A stretch of DNA of 64,000 nucleotides, taken from sequence record PZ386980.1; one strand, 5' to 3'. Both the position numbers and the translations under genes were made by a program. Each line of letters opens with the position of its first letter. Position 1 is the first letter of the stretch. Below, piece by piece: positions 2,230 to 40,510 of the stretch. The notes under the pieces are model-generated. The model worked only from the letters and a program-made list of their open reading frames with translations. It was not told where the DNA came from and did not search any database. Source of the DNA: a phage.

Positions 2230-2550
2230 TCACAATGAAGAAAATTCTTTAACTAAAGCCTGTAATGAAGCCTCTATTGGATATCCATTCTTAACTAACA
2301 TTTTCCTAAACATTACATGTTTAGGACGATTATATGATATCCACAATTCATACAATTTATCTTTATTATCCCAATGATAGCCTTTTCGTCGAGATGCTAT
2401 ATGAGCTTTTCTAATCTCCGGATTTTTCCAACTAGCAGCTACTGAATTTGATATAGCTATTTTATATTCAGGTTTTGATAAAGCAGCACGAACAGCCTTT
2501 TGGTGTTTAATTTTATTTTCTTCGTTATTAAACCATTCCCTTGAAGCCAT
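2230..2550 (-). CDS. HNH homing endonuclease, C-terminal DNA-binding portion (second ORF overlapping the catalytic ORF; possible frameshift or decayed gene)
   Basis: 106-aa ORF overlapping 2457..2550 of the upstream HNH ORF in another frame; basic, NUMOD-like repeats (KIKHQKAVRAALSKPEYKIAISNSVAASWKNPEIRKAH). Confidence 0.45.
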   Translation of the reverse strand: MASREWFNNEENKIKHQKAVRAALSKPEYKIAISNSVAASWKNPEIRKAHIASRRKGYHWDNKDKLYELWISYNRPKHVMFRKMLVKNGYPIEASLQALVKEFSSL

Positions 2551-3083
2551 TGAAATTTTTGTTTTGTTTTAAAATTATTTAATCTTTCTTTATTATCTTT
2601 CCTATTTTTTGCTACTGAAAAATATTTTAATGCCCTTTCTCTAGCAGCATTTCTATTTTGCGGATTTGAATAATACTGTTGAAGCCTTTTTGATATTGTG
2701 TCACTTACATCTTGTTTTATAAAACTATATTCAGCAGCTATTAAATCAACTTCGGCTAAAGATAAATTTTTATATGTTTTTCCTGACATCATTCTATTTA
2801 AAGCATTTAGCATTTTTCCATTTTTACCTTTTGCTAATAAGAAGTGTGCTTTAAAATGATTAAAATGACTTAAATTAACTAAATTCCATGTAGATTTTAA
2901 ATATTCAGGAAATATTGATTTAGGAAGCACGTGGTGTGCTTCCGTTTTACCTGGAGTTTTAACAGTTGAATTCACAGAAATAAAATTAATGTAAGACTTG
3001 GCGTCTTCTTCACTCAACGCTAATTTTTCAACTAATTCCTTTATTAAAAATTCATCATTAATGTCAAGTTTAAAATTCTTCAC
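2457..3083 (-). CDS. Freestanding HNH homing endonuclease (mob-like), N-terminal catalytic portion
   Basis: 208 aa; motif EAHHVLPKS...NLVNLSHFNHFKAH fits HNH (HH...N...N...H); GTG start overlapping TGA stop of the upstream ORF; basic C-terminal half. Confidence 0.6.
   Translation of the reverse strand: MKNFKLDINDEFLIKELVEKLALSEEDAKSYINFISVNSTVKTPGKTEAHHVLPKSIFPEYLKSTWNLVNLSHFNHFKAHFLLAKGKNGKMLNALNRMMSGKTYKNLSLAEVDLIAAEYSFIKQDVSDTISKRLQQYYSNPQNRNAARERALKYFSVAKNRKDNKERLNNFKTKQKFQWLQGNGLITKKIKLNTKRLFVLLYQNLNIK
3048..3067. repeat. Direct repeat copy A (aaattcatcattaatgtcaa) at the 5' end of the HNH ORF
   Basis: 20-nt perfect match to 3251..3270, similarity extends about 16 nt further; gives both ORFs a shared DINDEF N-terminal peptide. 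Confidence 0.8.
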
Positions 3084-8308: not shown

Positions 8309-8348
8309 ACATTATCCTCAATTACGTTAAAATTTTATTATCCAAAAA

Positions 8349-8360
8349 GGGCCGAAGCCC
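8349..8360 (-). terminator. Stem-loop GGGC-UUCG-GCCC followed by U-run
   Basis: gggccgaagccc directly after the stop of ORF 8361..8561, then UUUUUGG on the transcript. Confidence 0.5.
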
Positions 8361-8561
8361 TTAGCTAAACTTTTTGGCACCCTTCCAGCCTTCATACATC
8401 ATTGCGGCTGATATTAATATTGCTCCTGAGCAACTTGAATATTTGTGATTCCAAAACCAGTTTAGAAAAACTTCGTCATCAATACCTTGGGCTATCATAT
8501 TTTCAAAGAACTGACGACGAGCTTCGGCAATTCGCTGCGATAATTTAGATTCAGGATTCAT
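8361..8561 (-). CDS. Hypothetical protein
   Basis: ORF track. Confidence 0.45.
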   Translation of the reverse strand: MNPESKLSQRIAEARRQFFENMIAQGIDDEVFLNWFWNHKYSSCSGAILISAAMMYEGWKGAKKFS

Positions 8562-19264: not shown

Positions 19265-19665
19265 TTTTCAATTTTACTAAATACACAGAATATGATGGAA
19301 AAGACTATATAAGCACCGCACACAGATTGAACTAATACCATTCCAAAGAACCAAATAATATTATCAAACAGTGTCTGTTTTACGTCGAAAGGACGTAAAC
19401 TTACAGTAATATTATCACCTTTTTCTATTGAAGAATACATCTCTGGTGAAATATATTCACTAAATCTATAACCGTCTTTGAGTTCATATACAGCAATAAA
19501 CGATAAACTAGACCCCTTTCCTTGAGTTCCTGTAAGGGTATTAACTACAGTAACATCATAATCTTTATAATGCATATAATCATTAATTGCGTAATAACCA
19601 TATGCAACTACTACACATAAACAACATATCAATAAATTCAATCTTTTAATTATCAACTGTTTCAT
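19261..19665 (-). CDS. Membrane protein with N- and C-terminal hydrophobic helices
   Basis: 134 aa; LNLLICCLCVVVAYGYYAI and IIWFFGMVLVQSVCGAYIVFSIIFCVF. Confidence 0.55.
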   Translation of the reverse strand: MKQLIIKRLNLLICCLCVVVAYGYYAINDYMHYKDYDVTVVNTLTGTQGKGSSLSFIAVYELKDGYRFSEYISPEMYSSIEKGDNITVSLRPFDVKQTLFDNIIWFFGMVLVQSVCGAYIVFSIIFCVFSKIEN

Positions 19666-19720
19666 AATAATCTCAATTAAAAGGGCTTAGAACCATTATA
19701 CCATCCTTGGTATAAAGCGG

Positions 19721-20248
19721 TTATGCGAGTACCGTCTTTAACCGTTCTTCAAACTTCCGAAGAGTATTCTGGCGTTCAGCTCTTTGCTTTTTGTAAGTTT
19801 CAATACGCTCTGAAATGAGATTGTATCGTTCATTTACTGTTTCTTTCATAAAATCAGGAATTTCACGAGAAGCTTTAATCTCGTCAAATTTATCAATAAC
19901 AGCTTGCTCTTCAGCAATTAAGTTATCATACATCAAAATATCTTTCTTGATGAACTCAATATCTTCTTGAGTTACACGAGATAACTTAGATGCTTTATCC
20001 TTTTTGTACTGTTCGTTAGTATCACGAGACCAGTGTAATGTACGATTTTTATTCGTATTCTTGTAAATTTCTACAATACCAATCTCATCGATAATAACGA
20101 TCCAATTCCAACGGGATTTGTAAATTTGTCCTCCATCAACAGTGATTTCACCACCGATTGAGACATCATTAAAGAACTTGCTTTGAGCTTCAGATTTAAA
20201 TTTACCATCATTGTAGTTTACCAAGTTGAAAATATCTTTAGCATTCAT
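19721..20248 (-). CDS. Hypothetical protein with charged C-terminal coiled coil
   Basis: 175 aa; GGAGGA Shine-Dalgarno; downstream of early promoter. Confidence 0.55.
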   Translation of the reverse strand: MNAKDIFNLVNYNDGKFKSEAQSKFFNDVSIGGEITVDGGQIYKSRWNWIVIIDEIGIVEIYKNTNKNRTLHWSRDTNEQYKKDKASKLSRVTQEDIEFIKKDILMYDNLIAEEQAVIDKFDEIKASREIPDFMKETVNERYNLISERIETYKKQRAERQNTLRKFEERLKTVLA

Positions 20249-20269
20249 TTTCTGTTCCTCCGTAGTTGA

Positions 20270-20320
20270 TAGTTGTATAGTATCACAGAGGAACAGTCTT
20301 GTAAACCACTAAAAGAAACT
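20270..20320 (-). promoter_or_regulatory. T4-type early promoter with conserved leader
   Basis: -35 GTTTAC, 18 nt spacer, -10 TACTAT, then ACAACTATCAACTAC shared with promoters at 22410, 25980, 37672. Confidence 0.5.
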
Positions 20321-20623
20321 TCTTTCACAATTTTTTCCACTGAACCACGCGCTCACTGCTTTCTTAGTCTCAGGAGCAGTGTTATCCATAAACCATTCAA
20401 AGGCAGCCTTTTTATGATTCTGGAGGGCTTCTCGGGCTTTAATCTGCTCACGGTCTATTAACACTAACATATGAGCCTTTCTTGTCACCAGGGGCTTCTT
20501 ATGATTTTTTGAATATTCCCAATCATTTGTCCATCGCATTGTTGTTGCGAACTGAAATACTGCTTCTTTAATTTTAGTTTCATAAATTTCACGAGCCTTT
20601 GAGTATAACATCATTACCTCCAT
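20309..20623 (-). CDS. Hypothetical protein
   Basis: ORF track (104 aa). Confidence 0.45.
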   Translation of the reverse strand: MEVMMLYSKAREIYETKIKEAVFQFATTMRWTNDWEYSKNHKKPLVTRKAHMLVLIDREQIKAREALQNHKKAAFEWFMDNTAPETKKAVSAWFSGKNCERSFF

Positions 20624-20693
20624 TTACCAGTTTAATTCTAGTCATCTTTTTGATGGCAGTCCATATAATCTATTTCTGAACTGCCTTTTTGTC

Positions 20694-21413
20694 TTAGGAT
20701 TCTTCTAAATGTCTTTTCTGAAAAGTTGATACCATACTACGATACGGTTCATTTGGATATCCGTGTTTTATAGCTTCCTTTGTAAATTTTCTCCATCCAT
20801 ATTTAGTTTCTTTCCAAAGCTCGAATAATTCATCTTCATATTGCCATATAGTTAAATGAGAACGCTTTGCAGCTTTAATTCCATTAATATGCTTTTCTTT
20901 TACTACAGGATTGCTTAGTTTCTTTTTAATAATATTACTAACTTTTCTAACAAAAACTGGGTCCTTATATCGTTGCGAAGTTTTTATTGAAGTGTTTAAT
21001 TTAGCTTCCGGCGTGGATGTGACCTCTTTCATCTTTTTCTTCATATGCTGTATATGATTAGGATTTTTCCATAAATTTATAGAATGCTTTTTGCATTTTA
21101 TCCTAGTTTCATCTGCAACCTTTCCTCCTTCACCCCCGTATGACAGGTTAACACAGTTTTTTCCATATTTCAATTTACCTGCCATGATATATAATATTTC
21201 AGCTTGTACCATTTTATCATAATTATCAAAAACTTCTAAAACCGTTTTTGATAATATGTGGTCATTTGACACTTTTACACGTTCTATATAATTTCCACTA
21301 CCAACATACGAATCATTGATGTTATTAGTTATATGTCGACCATAATAGTATTTCTTAATACCTGTCTTTAAATTTAATATTTCAGTTTTATAGATAGTAA
21401 AATATTTTTTCAT
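20694..21413 (-). CDS. GIY-YIG homing endonuclease (Seg-like)
   Basis: 239 aa; N-terminal FTIYKTE...KKYYYGRH...SYVGSG GIY-YIG motifs; basic C-terminal half; ATGA overlap with upstream AAA ATPase gene. Confidence 0.7.
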   Translation of the reverse strand: MKKYFTIYKTEILNLKTGIKKYYYGRHITNNINDSYVGSGNYIERVKVSNDHILSKTVLEVFDNYDKMVQAEILYIMAGKLKYGKNCVNLSYGGEGGKVADETRIKCKKHSINLWKNPNHIQHMKKKMKEVTSTPEAKLNTSIKTSQRYKDPVFVRKVSNIIKKKLSNPVVKEKHINGIKAAKRSHLTIWQYEDELFELWKETKYGWRKFTKEAIKHGYPNEPYRSMVSTFQKRHLEES

Positions 21414-22378
21414 TTTAATAATACCGTTTCAGCGATTTCTTCCCAACCGTTTTTGTCGGTCATAATAAAGTCAGCAAGATAAAGTGCAGTACGCAGTGAA
21501 ACATTACGTAAACGATTAACATTGACTTTCATCCATGATAATGCTTTATAAGTTTCTTCATCAGAAAGACCGCGCTTTTGCATCATGTCGGTTGAAAGAA
21601 TAACATCTTCAACCCTGACCATAATTTCTTCATTAGTGTGAACACCCAAATCCAAATAAACTGAGCGGGACACTAATGCTTGTAAATGTGGAGCAAGTTT
21701 AGTACCACGGTCTAATTCGCGGTCAATGTCAACGTTTGTGATAAAAACAATCGTTCCTTTAAATTCAAACTCACGCTCAATGCCTTTTTCTTCTAAGTAA
21801 GAAGATGCGGTGCTCCAGCAGACTTTACGGGTCTCTCCAGTGTCCAGAGCAGCTTTCAGAAGATTAAGAATGTCCATATCAGAGAAAACATCCACATCAT
21901 CAATCAAAAGGACAGAATTCTCTTCACGATTATTCCAAAGCTGTTCATAAAGACCAATACCAGAGATTTTACCATTAATGCTTTTATACTCAATGTATCC
22001 AATATCATTTGCTTTATTTAAAGCTTTATCTAAAGAATACGTTTTACCAATACCTGCTGCTCCCGAGATAATTAATGAACGAATGTTTCCGTTAATAATA
22101 CCATTCGTCATCATTCCCATAACATTAAATCTTTTATTAATGCGGGTTTTCATATCTTCATACGATTCTTTAACTTCTTCAACTTTTACACCATCATATG
22201 AAATGTCTGATTTGTAAACCCAAACACCGCGACGCTTACCGTCAATTTCAACAAAAACTTTACCATCTCCTTGTGCATCTACCGGAGCATTATCTGGGAA
22301 CCATTCGCCTAAGAGCTCAAAAGTTCCAGAGATTTCTTTACCGAAGTAGATACCCTTATTGATAGTTACAGTTTTCAT
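21410..22378 (-). CDS. AAA-type P-loop ATPase
   Basis: Start moved to ATG 22378 (GGAG Shine-Dalgarno; track start is TTG inside the promoter); Walker A GAAGIGKTY, Walker B VLLIDDVD. Confidence 0.7.
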   Translation of the reverse strand: MKTVTINKGIYFGKEISGTFELLGEWFPDNAPVDAQGDGKVFVEIDGKRRGVWVYKSDISYDGVKVEEVKESYEDMKTRINKRFNVMGMMTNGIINGNIRSLIISGAAGIGKTYSLDKALNKANDIGYIEYKSINGKISGIGLYEQLWNNREENSVLLIDDVDVFSDMDILNLLKAALDTGETRKVCWSTASSYLEEKGIEREFEFKGTIVFITNVDIDRELDRGTKLAPHLQALVSRSVYLDLGVHTNEEIMVRVEDVILSTDMMQKRGLSDEETYKALSWMKVNVNRLRNVSLRTALYLADFIMTDKNGWEEIAETVLLK

Positions 22379-22409
22379 TTTATTCTCCAAATCTGTATCA
22401 GTTGATAGT

Positions 22410-22465
22410 TGTATAGTACCATAAAGCTTTATGCTTGTAAACAACTTTGTGAAAAATTTTTGAAA
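22410..22465 (-). promoter_or_regulatory. T4-type early promoter (promoter part of a stem-loop/promoter cassette)
   Basis: UP element, -35 GTTTAC, TGg extended -10 TACTAT, conserved ACAACTATCAAC leader; directly downstream of hairpin 22473..22490. Confidence 0.55.
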
Positions 22466-22472
22466 TAAAAAA

Positions 22473-22490
22473 GGGAGCCCGAAGGCTCCC
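22473..22490 (-). terminator. Rho-independent terminator
   Basis: gggagcccgaaggctccc (UUCG loop on transcript) followed by UUUUUUAUUU. Confidence 0.6.
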
Positions 22491-22492
22491 TA

Positions 22493-23506
22493 TCATTTAT
22501 AATAACTTCGATGGTTTTCGAGATACACCTTCTCAAGGAAGTCATCCCAGAAACCCATGTCTACTTTTTGCTGCATACCGTTCTTAGAAGCTTCAGTAGA
22601 TGCTGCTTCTACTTGATCGACCACATCTTCCAAAAACTCTTGAACTGTTTTAAATGGATGTTTACCCAACTTCACGTCGAGAATAAATGGAGCATCTTGG
22701 AGTGGATAAATCAAGTCGCCAGTTTTGTAAATTTCCAATAGTTGAAGTCCACCACGACAAGCATGACTTAGTGCTTTCCAATCAATGCCTTCATTGGCTT
22801 CGGCCTTACGAGCACGTTCACCATATTCAGCATCTAATTTGTTCAGTGACTGCTTAAGCTCAATAAGAGAAAGCGTTGTCTGATATTTACGACCCAACAC
22901 AGTGTAGAACGTTTGCGGGCCTGTTTTCTCGTGATTATGGAACACCCATTCACAGAATTCGTTTTCTGGAAGACGATGCTTAATATCTTCAATTTTAGTG
23001 CGACGTTGTCCTTGTGTTCCATCTTCTCGGTAGACATTCCGTTGATCAGGAATTTGATTAACTACTTTCAATACATCACGTAATGCAGCCAAACGAGAAC
23101 CCTTGACACCGTATTTAGAAGCTTGCTTGCGAACATATCCTAAATAGGATTTCATGTTAGTCGTATAAAAACGAGAACGGTTGTCTTGAATAAACTTCCA
23201 CACATCAGGCAAATCTGATTTAACTACTAGCTCAGGTGGAGTGTGAAGCATATCCAATGCTACGGTTTCACCATCTGCTGCTAATTTAAAGAAATATTTA
23301 AGACTGTATAGTTCATGGTCAATATCATCTTTAGTGTTTTTAGATGATGTGTTGTTAGTGTTTTTACTCATGTGCTCTTTGACATTTCCGATAAGAATAT
23401 CACGAGCAGGAGGAACAAAGATTTCTTTAAAATCTACATCAGATTCTGGGGTAGAAGTTCCATAAAGATGACTACCAAAATAGCTTTTCATTACTGTTTT
23501 CATCAT
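22493..23506 (-). CDS. Predicted nucleotidyltransferase (Pol-beta superfamily) with C-terminal helical domain
   Basis: 337 aa; N-terminal GSHLYGTSTPESDVDF fits the G[SG]x9-13D[hx]D NTase motif. Confidence 0.65.
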   Translation of the reverse strand: MMKTVMKSYFGSHLYGTSTPESDVDFKEIFVPPARDILIGNVKEHMSKNTNNTSSKNTKDDIDHELYSLKYFFKLAADGETVALDMLHTPPELVVKSDLPDVWKFIQDNRSRFYTTNMKSYLGYVRKQASKYGVKGSRLAALRDVLKVVNQIPDQRNVYREDGTQGQRRTKIEDIKHRLPENEFCEWVFHNHEKTGPQTFYTVLGRKYQTTLSLIELKQSLNKLDAEYGERARKAEANEGIDWKALSHACRGGLQLLEIYKTGDLIYPLQDAPFILDVKLGKHPFKTVQEFLEDVVDQVEAASTEASKNGMQQKVDMGFWDDFLEKVYLENHRSYYK

Positions 23507-23964
23507 TCAGCCTTATATTCAATAACAGGACATACTTTAGCTTTACGAGCTTTTAAAAATTCAACGATAATCGATTTCTTGGGTTGAATAGGAGGTAAAC
23601 CTTTATACGCCCTATCAATATTTTCTACGTGTAAAGCATAATCCTTTTTCCATTTATAATCTTTATATTTTTCACGCAAATGTGCAGGAATAACAAATGA
23701 ACCGATAATAAGTAAAACAACCAAAAGCGCAAGTATAAATGCTGATGGAAGCAAAGTCCATAAACTACCGAAAATAAGCCAACGTTGTAGGCTTTCTGCA
23801 CAAATAATTGTTAACCCTACGAGTATAGCACACCCAAAAATAGAAACGAAAAATGTAGGTATGGCAATAGACCAAAAATATGCGCATAGTGTCTTAGGTC
23901 GTTGCCATTCGTCGTTAAACAATTTGAATAATTTATAATGCCAAGAGTTTTCATTAATAATCAT
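23503..23964 (-). CDS. Membrane protein (2-3 predicted TM helices)
   Basis: 153 aa; long hydrophobic stretches. Confidence 0.55.
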   Translation of the reverse strand: MIINENSWHYKLFKLFNDEWQRPKTLCAYFWSIAIPTFFVSIFGCAILVGLTIICAESLQRWLIFGSLWTLLPSAFILALLVVLLIIGSFVIPAHLREKYKDYKWKKDYALHVENIDRAYKGLPPIQPKKSIIVEFLKARKAKVCPVIEYKAE

Positions 23965-23966
23965 AA

Positions 23967-24488
23967 TTATCCTTTCATTGAAGGCGTAACGGTTGTTAAA
24001 TACTTAATCATAGCTTCAGCTTCTGATTTTGATAATGAAATTTCTCCATTGCTTTGACGAATAGAAATAAAATCCGGATGACGGTCACCACCAGCTTTTA
24101 AAACACACATATAAGTATCAACTTCGCCTTCAATATTTGAAATGATTGAAGCAGTTCCACATGAATGCGGTTTTTGATAAATCAATACAGCTTTTCTTCC
24201 ACCATTTGACTGTTCATAGGCTTTTAATACATCAAACAAATCAGTTCTTTTATCAATAGCTAAAATGTTATTTTCATCTTCAATGTTAAATCCTTCGGAT
24301 ACTTCATAAAGCGTTACCCATAAATCACCGATGTCAATAACAGCATTTACTTTTCCACAGCTTTCAAGAGTATGACAAATTTTCTTGATTTCGTCATAAC
24401 TCATTTTAATAATATCATCTCCTTGGCTAAGAAAGATGTCATTTTTAAATTCAACACGAATTAAACCACTTCCACTTGAAATAAACAT
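23967..24488 (-). CDS. Uncharacterised protein, paralog pair member A
   Basis: 173 aa; shares GFNIE... and C-terminal SKSEAEAMIKYLTTVTPSM motif with 24495..25040. Confidence 0.55.
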   Translation of the reverse strand: MFISSGSGLIRVEFKNDIFLSQGDDIIKMSYDEIKKICHTLESCGKVNAVIDIGDLWVTLYEVSEGFNIEDENNILAIDKRTDLFDVLKAYEQSNGGRKAVLIYQKPHSCGTASIISNIEGEVDTYMCVLKAGGDRHPDFISIRQSNGEISLSKSEAEAMIKYLTTVTPSMKG

Positions 24489-39103: not shown

Positions 39104-39180
<77 letters not shown>

Positions 39181-39184
39181 TATT

Positions 39185-39259
39185 TGGCGGACATGCATGG
39201 ATTCGAACCATGGACCAATTGATTAACAGTCAACTGCTCTACCACTGAGCTACACATCC
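39185..39259 (-). tRNA. tRNA-Asn (anticodon GTT)
   Basis: Manual cloverleaf: anticodon loop CTGTTAA, T-arm CATGG-TTCGAAT-CCATG, encoded CCA; acceptor stem has two G-U pairs. Confidence 0.7.
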
Positions 39260-39263
39260 AAAT

Positions 39264-39350
39264 TGGTGGGGAGTGATGGAGTCGAACCACCCGAGTCGCA
39301 ATGACAATGAATTTACAGTCCACACCGCTACCTCTACGGGATAACTCCCC
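39264..39350 (-). tRNA. tRNA-Tyr (anticodon GTA), class II with long variable arm
   Basis: 87 nt; perfect 7-bp acceptor stem GGGGAGT/ACTCCCC, anticodon loop CTGTAAA, 15-nt variable arm, encoded CCA. Confidence 0.7.
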
Positions 39351-39362
39351 TAATTCATAATT

Positions 39363-39437
39363 TGGTGGCCCTGGGTGGAATTGAACCACCATCTGGCGAT
39401 TATGAGTCGCTTGCTTGAACCTTCCAGCTACAGGGCC
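39363..39437 (-). tRNA. tRNA with CAT anticodon (Met, or Ile if lysidine-modified)
   Basis: Acceptor GGCCCTG/CAGGGCC, anticodon loop CTCATAA, T-loop TTCAATT, encoded CCA. Confidence 0.75.
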
Positions 39438-39438
39438 T

Positions 39439-39514
39439 TGGTGCTGATTGACGGAATCGAACCGCCGACCTTCTCATTACAAGTGAGTTGCTCTACCTAC
39501 TGAGCTAAATCAGC
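39439..39514 (-). tRNA. tRNA-Thr (anticodon TGT)
   Basis: Acceptor GCTGATT/AATCAGC, anticodon loop CTTGTAA, T-loop TTCGATT, encoded CCA. Confidence 0.85.
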
Positions 39515-39519
39515 AAAAC

Positions 39520-39609
39520 TGGCGGAGGTGATAGGATTCGAACCTATGAATCGCCGGAGCGACTGCCGGTTTTCAAGACCGGTGCATTCAACCACTCTGC
39601 CACACCTCC
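39520..39609 (-). tRNA. tRNA-Ser (anticodon TGA), class II
   Basis: 90 nt; anticodon arm CCGGT-CTTGAAA-ACCGG, long variable arm, T-loop TTCGAAT, encoded CCA. Confidence 0.85.
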
Positions 39610-39615
39610 AAATAT

Positions 39616-40266
39616 TTATATATTGTTAATTTGATTTAGAATTCTTTTTGCTTGAGTATGACTTACGCCAATATGCTTAGCATATTTAGATAATTCACCA
39701 CGCTTAGAAAAATCATATAATTTAGAAATTTCTATTCTTCTTTTTCTTTCATCCGCAGAAACTTTTGCTTCGTTTGCTTTTGCTATTTTACGTTTAGCTT
39801 CTTGAGAATGAGTTTTACCAGCAAAGCCATTCTTCATTAATCCATTTGAAGACCATCCTTTTAATTTTCCGTTAGAATGTGCCTTTTTAACACCCAATGA
39901 AATTAATTCGCGCTGCTGATCTGTCATAGGATAATTATTTATATGATCCCATCCACCTTCACCGCCAAGTTTTAAATTATACACATCTGGTCTATTTAAA
40001 AACTCTTCTGTAACAATATTTTTCTCGGCTTCAAGCATAGATTCTTTATCATCAAAATACTCTAATATTTCTTTAGAAAAATTTTCTATACCATATTTAT
40101 CTTGGGCTCTTTTTAATAATTTACCAGAACCCATATATCCATCATCTAAATTTTCGGTAGAATGCACACCAATATAAATTTTATTATTAATTTTATTTGT
40201 TATTTTATAAAGATAAAAATGCATATCAGTCCCTAATAAAGAACTGAGCGTCTCACGACGAGTCAT
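39616..40266 (-). CDS. segB: GIY-YIG homing endonuclease (SegB-like) inside the tRNA cluster
   Basis: 216 aa; FYLYKIT...KIYIGVHS...GYMGSG GIY-YIG motifs, basic C-terminal half; sits between tRNA-Gly and tRNA-Ser. Confidence 0.7.
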   Translation of the reverse strand: MTRRETLSSLLGTDMHFYLYKITNKINNKIYIGVHSTENLDDGYMGSGKLLKRAQDKYGIENFSKEILEYFDDKESMLEAEKNIVTEEFLNRPDVYNLKLGGEGGWDHINNYPMTDQQRELISLGVKKAHSNGKLKGWSSNGLMKNGFAGKTHSQEAKRKIAKANEAKVSADERKRRIEISKLYDFSKRGELSKYAKHIGVSHTQAKRILNQINNI

Positions 40267-40270
40267 AAAT

Positions 40271-40344
<74 letters not shown>

Positions 40345-40349
40345 AAATT

Positions 40350-40436
40350 TGGTGCGAGAAGTGGGACTCGAACCCACAAGGAAATCATTCCGCAGCATTT
40401 TAAGTGCTGTGCCTTTACCAATTTGACCATTCTCGC
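40350..40436 (-). tRNA. tRNA-Leu (anticodon TAA), class II
   Basis: 87 nt; anticodon arm CAGCA-CTTAAAA-TGCTG, long variable arm, encoded CCA. Confidence 0.85.
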
Positions 40437-40437
40437 G

Positions 40438-40510
40438 CTGGGAATAAAGGACTCGAACCTTTGCATCCTGGAATCAAAATCCAGTGCCTTACCAACTTGG
40501 CTAATTCCCA
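40438..40510 (-). tRNA. tRNA-Gln (anticodon TTG); 3' CCA not encoded
   Basis: Acceptor TGGGAAT/ATTCCCA, anticodon arm CTGGA-TTTTGAT-TCCAG, T-loop TTCGAGT; only 2 nt separate it from tRNA-Leu. Confidence 0.8.

Follow-up and report, generated by a model that had tools for sequence, protein, structure and literature searches.

A seg-like gene between nrdC.10 and nrdC.9

The locus considered here belongs to a stretch of 64,000 nucleotides of phage DNA (record PZ386980.1), henceforth the window. On the minus strand, an ORF of 239 amino acids with an ATG start and a TAA stop spans exactly positions 20694..21413, the coordinates flagged by an earlier sequence-only reading. When 4.1 kb of the region (window 19500-23600) was used as query, a 100% match to Enterobacteria phages RB51 and RB68 was found; window positions equal RB51 positions minus 32145. 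The genes of the locus are the following:

20694..21413, minus strand: Seg-like free-standing homing endonuclease gene (239 aa; RB51ORF100 = RB32ORF093c), assigned from the ORF, 100% identity in RB51 and RB68, PHROG 314, and Seg paralogues found by tblastn
21410..22378, minus strand: nrdC.10, AAA-type NTPase-like, host gene and presumed target gene (Pfam; RB51 annotation; 74% identical orthologue upstream of the homologue in phage Merci)
20309..20611, minus strand: nrdC.9 (DUF7203), downstream neighbor of the seg gene (Pfam, RB51 annotation)

Location between nrdC.10 and nrdC.9 makes the seg gene free-standing. An intron-borne gene was considered and rejected, as an Rfam scan of the window at gathering threshold detected tRNAs only and no group I intron. 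A chance ORF is ruled out by the existence of identical or near-identical proteins in 67 phage records. The Pfam matches of nrdC.10 are weak, of the AAA/P-loop NTPase type, and all of them fall under the curated cut-offs (AAA_14, E 6.5e-5). Upstream of nrdC.10, nrdC.11 encodes an RlaP nucleotidyltransferase (Pfam, E 2.5e-11).

The gene is already annotated as seg-like in GenBank records, yet it is uncharacterized so far; no experimental paper on the seg gene that follows nrdC.10 or on its protein, and no cleavage or homing experiment, was found in the literature. The RefSeq label in RB51 is 'DNA endonuclease, similar to seg putative site-specific intron-like DNA endonuclease', and similar labels are found in the RB32, RB14 and T6 records. 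The RB68 and AR1 records name the gene 'segE', which is a misnomer. Correction is thus possible in several records where the gene is currently 'segE' or 'hypothetical protein'. Annotation noise is also found nearby: nrdC.6 to nrdC.11 are named 'thioredoxin' in many GenBank/RefSeq records, and mobD.1 and mobD.4 of RefSeq RB51 are named 'molybdopterin-guanine dinucleotide biosynthesis protein MobD', a collision of gene names.

Sequence and predicted fold point to a diverged Seg endonuclease

SegA to SegG of phage T4 and SegH of T6/U5 are free-standing GIY-YIG homing endonucleases of T-even phages. The motifs that had suggested a protein of this kind are present (FTIY8KTE, KKY-Y23-Y-G25-RH, and SY36VG38SG), and the basic tail described along with them corresponds to 140 C-terminal residues rich in K/R. 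Three regions can be distinguished:

21123..21413, minus strand: N-terminal GIY-YIG catalytic domain, residues 1-97, with Y8, Y23, G25, H27, Y36, G38-S39-G40, E72 and N89
20856..21116, minus strand: five tandem helices of ~17 residues, each after a Pro, residues ~100-186, NUMOD3-like DNA-binding repeats (model and Pfam matches of homologues)
20697..20855, minus strand: C-terminal three-helix, helix-turn-helix-like module, residues 187-239

The HMM check proposed in the sequence-only reading, with GIY-YIG and NUMOD profiles, gave a negative result for the protein itself. No Pfam match was obtained at E<=0.1, either to PF01541 GIY-YIG, PF19835 SegE_GIY-YIG or PF07460 NUMOD3; no NCBIfam family was found at E<=10, and phmmer detected no match among PDB sequences. 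Because the query lacks a direct profile match, the GIY-YIG assignment was established indirectly. The protein matches PHROG 314 'homing endonuclease' (1.8e-30), and an exhaustive HMMER search of a representative library retrieved 1,419 homologues at E<=1e-3, while a separate homologous-protein search yielded 2 proteins only. Among 101 homologues, Pfam matches were obtained to PF19835 (46), PF01541 (34) and PF07460 NUMOD3 (37). By tblastn, the protein is related to named Segs: T4 SegB (1e-5), T6 SegH (2e-5), the VR26 'segA' gene (1e-13) and nt-1 SegD (1e-4). A SegB-like protein encoded elsewhere in the window, which passes PF01541, is 37% identical over residues 21-97 (E 3e-11).

Alignment of 101 relatives revealed that Y8, G25, Y36, G38, E72 and N89 are invariant, and that Y23 (99%), H27, T29, D34, S39, G40, G93 and G94 are nearly so. 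A weak match of the family profile to I-TevI (1LN0; E 0.21) pairs Y8, Y23/G25, E72 and N89 with Y6, Y17/G19, E75 and N90. The catalytic arginine of I-TevI, R27, lacks a clearly conserved counterpart. The query has R26, but K, M and R alternate in that column across the clade; it is H27 that is near-invariant. At positions 44-45, basic residues reach just ~50-60% conservation, and the segment between the YIG motif and the next helix is ~8 residues shorter in the Seg clade than in I-TevI.

An AlphaFold model built from a single sequence was unusable (pLDDT 41.7), and a model based on an alignment was used instead (pLDDT 95.4). The predicted fold is the GIY-YIG alpha/beta fold, with a three-stranded sheet flanked by helices, and the repeat helices span residues 101-116, 118-132, 135-149, 152-166 and 169-185. 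Structure matches in BFVD include many Seg-like entries and the T4 entry P04523, named 'DNA replication protein', which we take to be gp69/SegF. The Seg-like GIY-YIG reading is thus upheld by PHROG 314, tblastn to Segs, conserved residues and the MSA-based fold. Judged by sequence and modelled fold, the protein is to be grouped with the free-standing Segs of T-even phages, as a diverged lineage that escapes Pfam and NCBIfam.

Comparison with known enzymes reveals both likeness and difference. With the T4 Segs and SegH, the protein shares the signature Y-x-G-x-H-x-T...D-x-Y-x-G-S-G...E...N-L..GG and an architecture in which a basic helical DNA-binding region comes after the N-terminal GIY-YIG domain, with significant similarity to T4 SegB, T6 SegH and the SegB-like protein of the window; the gene is likewise intergenic and sporadic among close relatives. 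In contrast, identity with the named Segs is 27-37% and covers part of the length only, the protein has diverged beyond the reach of the Pfam GIY-YIG and SegE_GIY-YIG models, and its gene overlaps the stop codon of the host gene and brings along a recoded host 3' end. The locus, nrdC.10/nrdC.9, is also missing from the T4 table of PMC2988022. Differences from I-TevI, which is encoded in the T4 td intron (PDB 1LN0/1MK0), are larger: the present gene is free-standing, identity is 18%, the R27-bearing helix is replaced by a shorter segment, and inspection of the linker by eye revealed no Zn-finger motif.

Putative coupling to nrdC.10 expression

The overlap with the upstream gene, noticed previously as ATGA, was verified: TCAT is found on the plus strand at 21410-21413, with the seg ATG (21413-21411) lying over the nrdC.10 TGA (21412-21410). 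Two features may be relevant for expression:

21410..21413, minus strand: ATGA start/stop overlap of nrdC.10 and seg (sequence; kept in 11/11 carriers of the gene and in the metagenomic contig L056)
22413..22441, minus strand: sigma-70-like promoter match TTTACA-17-TACTAT with TG, upstream of nrdC.10, from a consensus scan only

Signals that might drive the seg gene separately were not detected. No T4 late promoter TATAAATA exists within 5 kb on the coding strand, and the total of promoter-like sites in the sigma-70 scan is not above the shuffled expectation. The 26 nt ahead of the seg ATG contain no Shine-Dalgarno sequence of the AGGAG/GAGG type, and no significant RNA structure was found at the seg start (z -0.49). 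A dedicated promoter or regulatory hairpin was rejected on these grounds. The match at 22413..22441 is a probable source of a transcript containing nrdC.10, seg and nrdC.9, and transcription of seg would probably occur together with nrdC.10 from this early-type promoter; a terminator-like hairpin (22472-22491) lies upstream of both the promoter match and nrdC.10. As the seg gene lacks a ribosome-binding site of its own, translation is probably achieved by termination-reinitiation at ATGA. Co-transcription with nrdC.10 followed by reinitiation would be the simplest reading of the sequence, and is backed by conservation of ATGA in a homologue with 41% identity.

Another hairpin, GGCAGTTC...GGACTGCC, with 8 bp including one G-U pair, is conserved just past the seg stop and ahead of the ribosome-binding site of nrdC.9 (window 20655-20685, minus strand). 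It is found in carriers and non-carriers and is not followed by a T-run, so that it is not an obvious terminator.

Presence, absence and junctions in Tequatrovirus

Absence of the gene from T4, which the sequence-only reading had tentatively put forward, was borne out: nrdC.10 and nrdC.9 are 94 bp apart in T4, with no gene between them. A review of T4 mobile elements includes no seg gene at this locus either (PMC2988022). Comparison with relatives was carried out in two ways. When the protein was searched by tblastn in 50,697 phage records, 67 had it at >=95% identity, and the next best matches fell to 46%. When probes were used, a 131-nt sequence over the empty site of T4 matched end to end in 435 records, and an 86-nt sequence over the carrier junction matched end to end in exactly 67, a figure equal to the gene count. 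The 86-nt probe also hit 381 other records; in the 34 of them that were listed, T2 among them, the match is always lost at base 45-47, which is the break point. Hence, carriers make up roughly 13-15% of Tequatrovirus-type records (about one in seven), while T4 and ~380-435 others have an empty site. The locus may thus be viewed as a natural experiment, with 67 carriers and hundreds of empty sites in near-identical flanks.

The junctions were examined in a panel made of 11 carriers (RB51, RB14, RB32, T6, AR1, RB3, G157lw, BF15, KMB22, W143 and ZN18) and 11 non-carriers (T4, wV7, PP01, slur02, ACG-C40, G10400, Ec_MI-02, SF7 and three IMG/VR contigs). Two features were delimited:

21410..21430, minus strand: recoded last six nrdC.10 codons plus stop, carried with the element (alignment, 11 carriers vs 11 non-carriers)
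20694..20715, minus strand: right junction, last seg codons plus stop (panel alignment)

Carriers have ~730 bp in place of ~40 bp that comprise the last six nrdC.10 codons and part of the spacer, and the boundaries are identical in all 11. On the left side, identity stops after ...GAAGAAATYGCTGA (window 21429). On the right side, the last fixed difference is at 20698, and identity with empty sites is unbroken from 20697 onwards (...TAAGACAAAAAGG); the ~17 nt that precede 20697 seem to be what is left of the native spacer, in diverged form. The end of nrdC.10 reads GAA ACG GTA TTA TTA AAA TGA (ETVLLK*) in carriers and GAG GTT ACT CTT CTG AAA TAA (EVTLLK*) in empty sites; thus 12 of 21 nucleotides differ, while the peptide is nearly unchanged. 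Alleles with the recoded tail and without the gene ('immune empty' alleles) were not found among the matches listed, and the junction count equals the gene count.

The nrdC.10 gene of T4 has a peculiarity at this place (locus L001, ~8337-8374, ~window 21430). One extra G (ACGGGT vs ACGGT/GAGGT in other Tequatroviruses) causes a frameshift, and the tail becomes longer, reading TGYSSEINS* where the others have (E/T)VTLLK*. This variable spot coincides exactly with the left junction of the seg insertion. A scar left by repair, a change conferring resistance and an oddity of the T4 sequence are all conceivable explanations of the extra G.

Variation is also found at neighboring sites. T4 has an HNH gene, mobD, just downstream of nrdC.11 (L001 10430-11209); in RB51, RB32, RB14 and T6, mobD is replaced by two unrelated ORFs, RB32ORF096c/097c ('replaces mobD'; window 23503-24488, minus strand). 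The two neighboring spacers of this gene block thus harbor alternative mobile endonuclease genes, depending on the phage. The spacer between nrdC.11 and nrdC.10 (window ~22445-22492) is variable too, with an extra ORF of 66 aa in KMB22 (L009 3437-3637) and of 161 aa in W143 (L010 3509-3994). In ACG-C40 (L049 1-1030), the usual place of nrdC.11 upstream of nrdC.10 is taken by small ORFs and a ModB-like ADP-ribosylase.

Flanking variation

Comparison of the 11 carriers with the 11 non-carriers revealed no fixed or strongly associated difference outside 21430..20698. Divergence between groups equals divergence within groups in every 100-bp bin (~1-4%), and the panel alignment yielded no signal of co-conversion or hitch-hiking in the flanks. 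On the left side, polymorphisms common to both groups occur at distances of 4 bp (21434 C/T) and 17-19 bp (21447-21448) from the junction; on the right side, the distance is 45 bp. Natural SNPs in the flanks are located at 21434, 21447-21449, 21485 and 20652. The existence of such shared polymorphisms indicates that one element with the same junctions resides in several flanking haplotypes that are also known empty. Diversity of the insert among carriers is 0.98%, below that of the flanks. In non-carriers, the replaced 40-bp segment is 5.5% polymorphic vs 1.7-2.8% in the flanks, a figure obtained with a small sample of 11 genomes.

Haplotype sharing is the pattern that repeated homing with short conversion tracts would predict. 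Very frequent ordinary recombination among co-circulating phages could, however, be an alternative or contributing cause of the unlinked SNPs in the flanks. As no fixed difference exists in the flanks, the distinction between recipient and donor must lie in the replaced 40 bp. This argument has a weak side: cleavage by known Seg enzymes often takes place tens to hundreds of bp away from where the gene is inserted, and weak cleavage of the enzyme's own genome also occurs, so that the argument could fail. As for the proposal that the gene biases inheritance of the flanking ATPase and nucleotidyltransferase genes in mixed infections, such a bias would be reasonable by analogy, although natural populations show no sign of it.

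The same site in other T4-like lineages

An alignment search of viral contigs with nrdC.10 provided 30 loci from several T4-like genera, and a search with nrdC.9 provided 4. The seg gene is missing from 29 of the 30 nrdC.10 loci, and each lineage has its own typical spacer in these empty alleles. The nrdC.10 tail follows the rule IAEVT(L/M/Q)L(K/R)* among the 30 loci, with IATVTLLK* in a Tequatrovirus locus (L014) and ETVLLK* in the sole carrier only. At the nucleotide level, a core of roughly GAAATYGCTGARGTWACNNTNCTGAAATAA is common to the empty alleles of these genera. The end of nrdC.10 is CTGAAATAA in most of the empty alleles listed and CTTAAATAA, CTGAAGTAA or TTGAAATAA in a few, while empty alleles of Acinetobacter phages (L036/L037) depart further from CTGAAATAA. 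The CTGAAATAA end is missing from every carrier allele.

In two or three further T4-like lineages, this site is filled by homologues whose identity is 41-46%:

(i). Klebsiella phage vB_KaeM_Merci (Jiaodavirus) has an intact homologue, 46% identical over 98% of the query, directly after an nrdC.10 gene that is 74% identical. Compared with relatives that lack the gene, Merci has 739 bp in place of 49 bp, and the break occurs four codons ahead of the nrdC.10 stop. The tail is EVTQLRG* where relatives have EVTMLK*. The seg ATG lies 8 nt past the nrdC.10 stop, and hence the ATGA overlap is not universal.

(ii). Serratia phage 92A1 harbors, in the same place, a 45% identical copy (98% of the query) with an in-frame stop codon.

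(iii). In the JS98-like metagenomic contig L056, a homologue with 41% identity over 77% of the query is found between nrdC.10 and nrdC.9, with 750 bp in place of 39 bp. Both the ATGA overlap and the AETVLLK* tail are as in RB51. The gene caller picked an internal ATG (197 aa), but the true frame (L056 2872-3594) opens at ATGA and includes the whole GIY-YIG domain.

These three homologues resemble the RB51 gene in that they lie directly after nrdC.10 and replace its last 4-10 codons and the spacer. They differ in belonging to other genera, in the 8-nt gap and the EVTQLRG* tail of Merci, and in the in-frame stop of 92A1. From these alignments, we predict that the clade recognizes the conserved 3' end of nrdC.10, and the prediction is specific: the target would be the conserved last codons ending in CTGAAATAA.

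Proposed homing and alternative explanations

The interpretation that we favor, with a probability of about 0.8, is that the gene encodes a free-standing Seg-type endonuclease, probably coupled to nrdC.10 at the translational level, with the conserved 3' end of nrdC.10 as its homing site. The NUMOD3-like repeats and the helix-turn-helix-like module would together read a long DNA site. Upon mixed infection with an empty phage such as T4 or T2, the enzyme would cut the empty allele at or beside the conserved 3' end of nrdC.10, with the break predicted at or near GTTACTCTTCTGAAATAA. The seg-bearing genome would then serve as template when the phage recombination machinery mends the break, so that ~730 bp are copied into the recipient. 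The element would supply a recoded nrdC.10 terminus, ETVLLK* for EVTLLK*, with little change in the host protein, and carriers would be protected because the recoded terminus removes the presumed recognition sequence. If so, this is one more T-even homing endonuclease, and the understanding of such elements is unchanged. What deserves attention is that the element would overlap an essential-looking host reading frame without damage, by supplying a recoded terminus.

One may also consider that the gene is a defunct or domesticated remnant, transmitted vertically or by ordinary recombination without a site-specific nuclease, and perhaps persisting as a DNA-binding protein. Three of the 11 sampled Tequatrovirus copies are disrupted by frameshifts (AR1, -1 in a T5 run; G157lw, -1 in an A6 run; RB3, +7 in a G5 run), as is the copy of Serratia phage 92A1 by its stop codon; the catalytic domain lacks a Pfam match, and the arginine has no clearly conserved equivalent. 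We nonetheless find a remnant unlikely. The other eight copies are intact and have few substitutions, the RB51 copy is full length with the clade-invariant Y8, Y23, G25, H27, E72 and N89 all intact, and several flanking haplotypes carry the gene with identical junctions. Furthermore, the three frameshifts occur in homopolymer runs and may be sequencing errors, and decayed copies would be a normal stage in the life of homing endonuclease genes. Ancestry of the gene at the nrdC.10 site of T4-like phages, followed by deletion in T4 and most relatives, seems very improbable even if the occurrence of 41-46% identical homologues at the same site in several genera can be read as ancient vertical inheritance. 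Loss would involve many independent deletions, each restoring the same conserved tail, and the 29 empty loci of the 30 found in viral contigs combine that common tail with lineage-typical spacers. The interleaved haplotypes of carriers and non-carriers, and an insert less diverse than its flanks, also argue against deletion.

Homing might even be secondary, if the enzyme were selected mainly for producing breaks around nrdC.10/nrdC.11 that lead to segmental amplification or to the exclusion of competitor markers. A study of T6 (PMC13096335) reports that SegB, in cis as well as in trans, causes anti-defence loci to be amplified, gp49.1-nrdC.1 being one of the amplified segments. This segment lies in the same region of the T6 genome, and T6 also possesses the seg gene described here. 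However, the effect is credited to SegB in that study (PMC13096335), no sign of amplification or of nrdC.10/nrdC.11 as anti-defence genes was seen here, and a clean, precise presence/absence polymorphism is the prediction of plain homing; such a role is, in our view, the most improbable of all. A broader version of the homing interpretation is doubtful as a whole. It would involve a site-faithful Seg clade for the nrdC.10 3' end, present in >=3 T4-like genera, that moves with a recoded terminus, relies on translation of the host gene (ATGA reinitiation), and makes breaks that maybe promote nrdC.10/nrdC.11 amplification or marker exclusion as SegB does.

Other homing endonuclease genes in the window

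The only other GIY-YIG gene detected in the window by tblastn encodes the SegB-like endonuclease mentioned above (216 aa; 39616-40266, minus strand), which passes Pfam GIY-YIG. It sits within a cluster of eight tRNA genes (39107-39609 and 40274-40510).

A broken HNH homing endonuclease gene lies between genes 46 and 46.1 (window 2230-3083, minus strand), where nothing is annotated in RefSeq RB51. One of its fragments (2457-3083, 208 aa) matches an HNH PHROG and just the first half of phrog_655 'homing endonuclease' (3.9e-36). The other (2230-2550, 106 aa) overlaps it out of frame and is 31% identical over 84 aa to the C-terminal DNA-binding part of the seg protein, a similarity that suggests a DNA-binding module common to GIY-YIG and HNH endonucleases.
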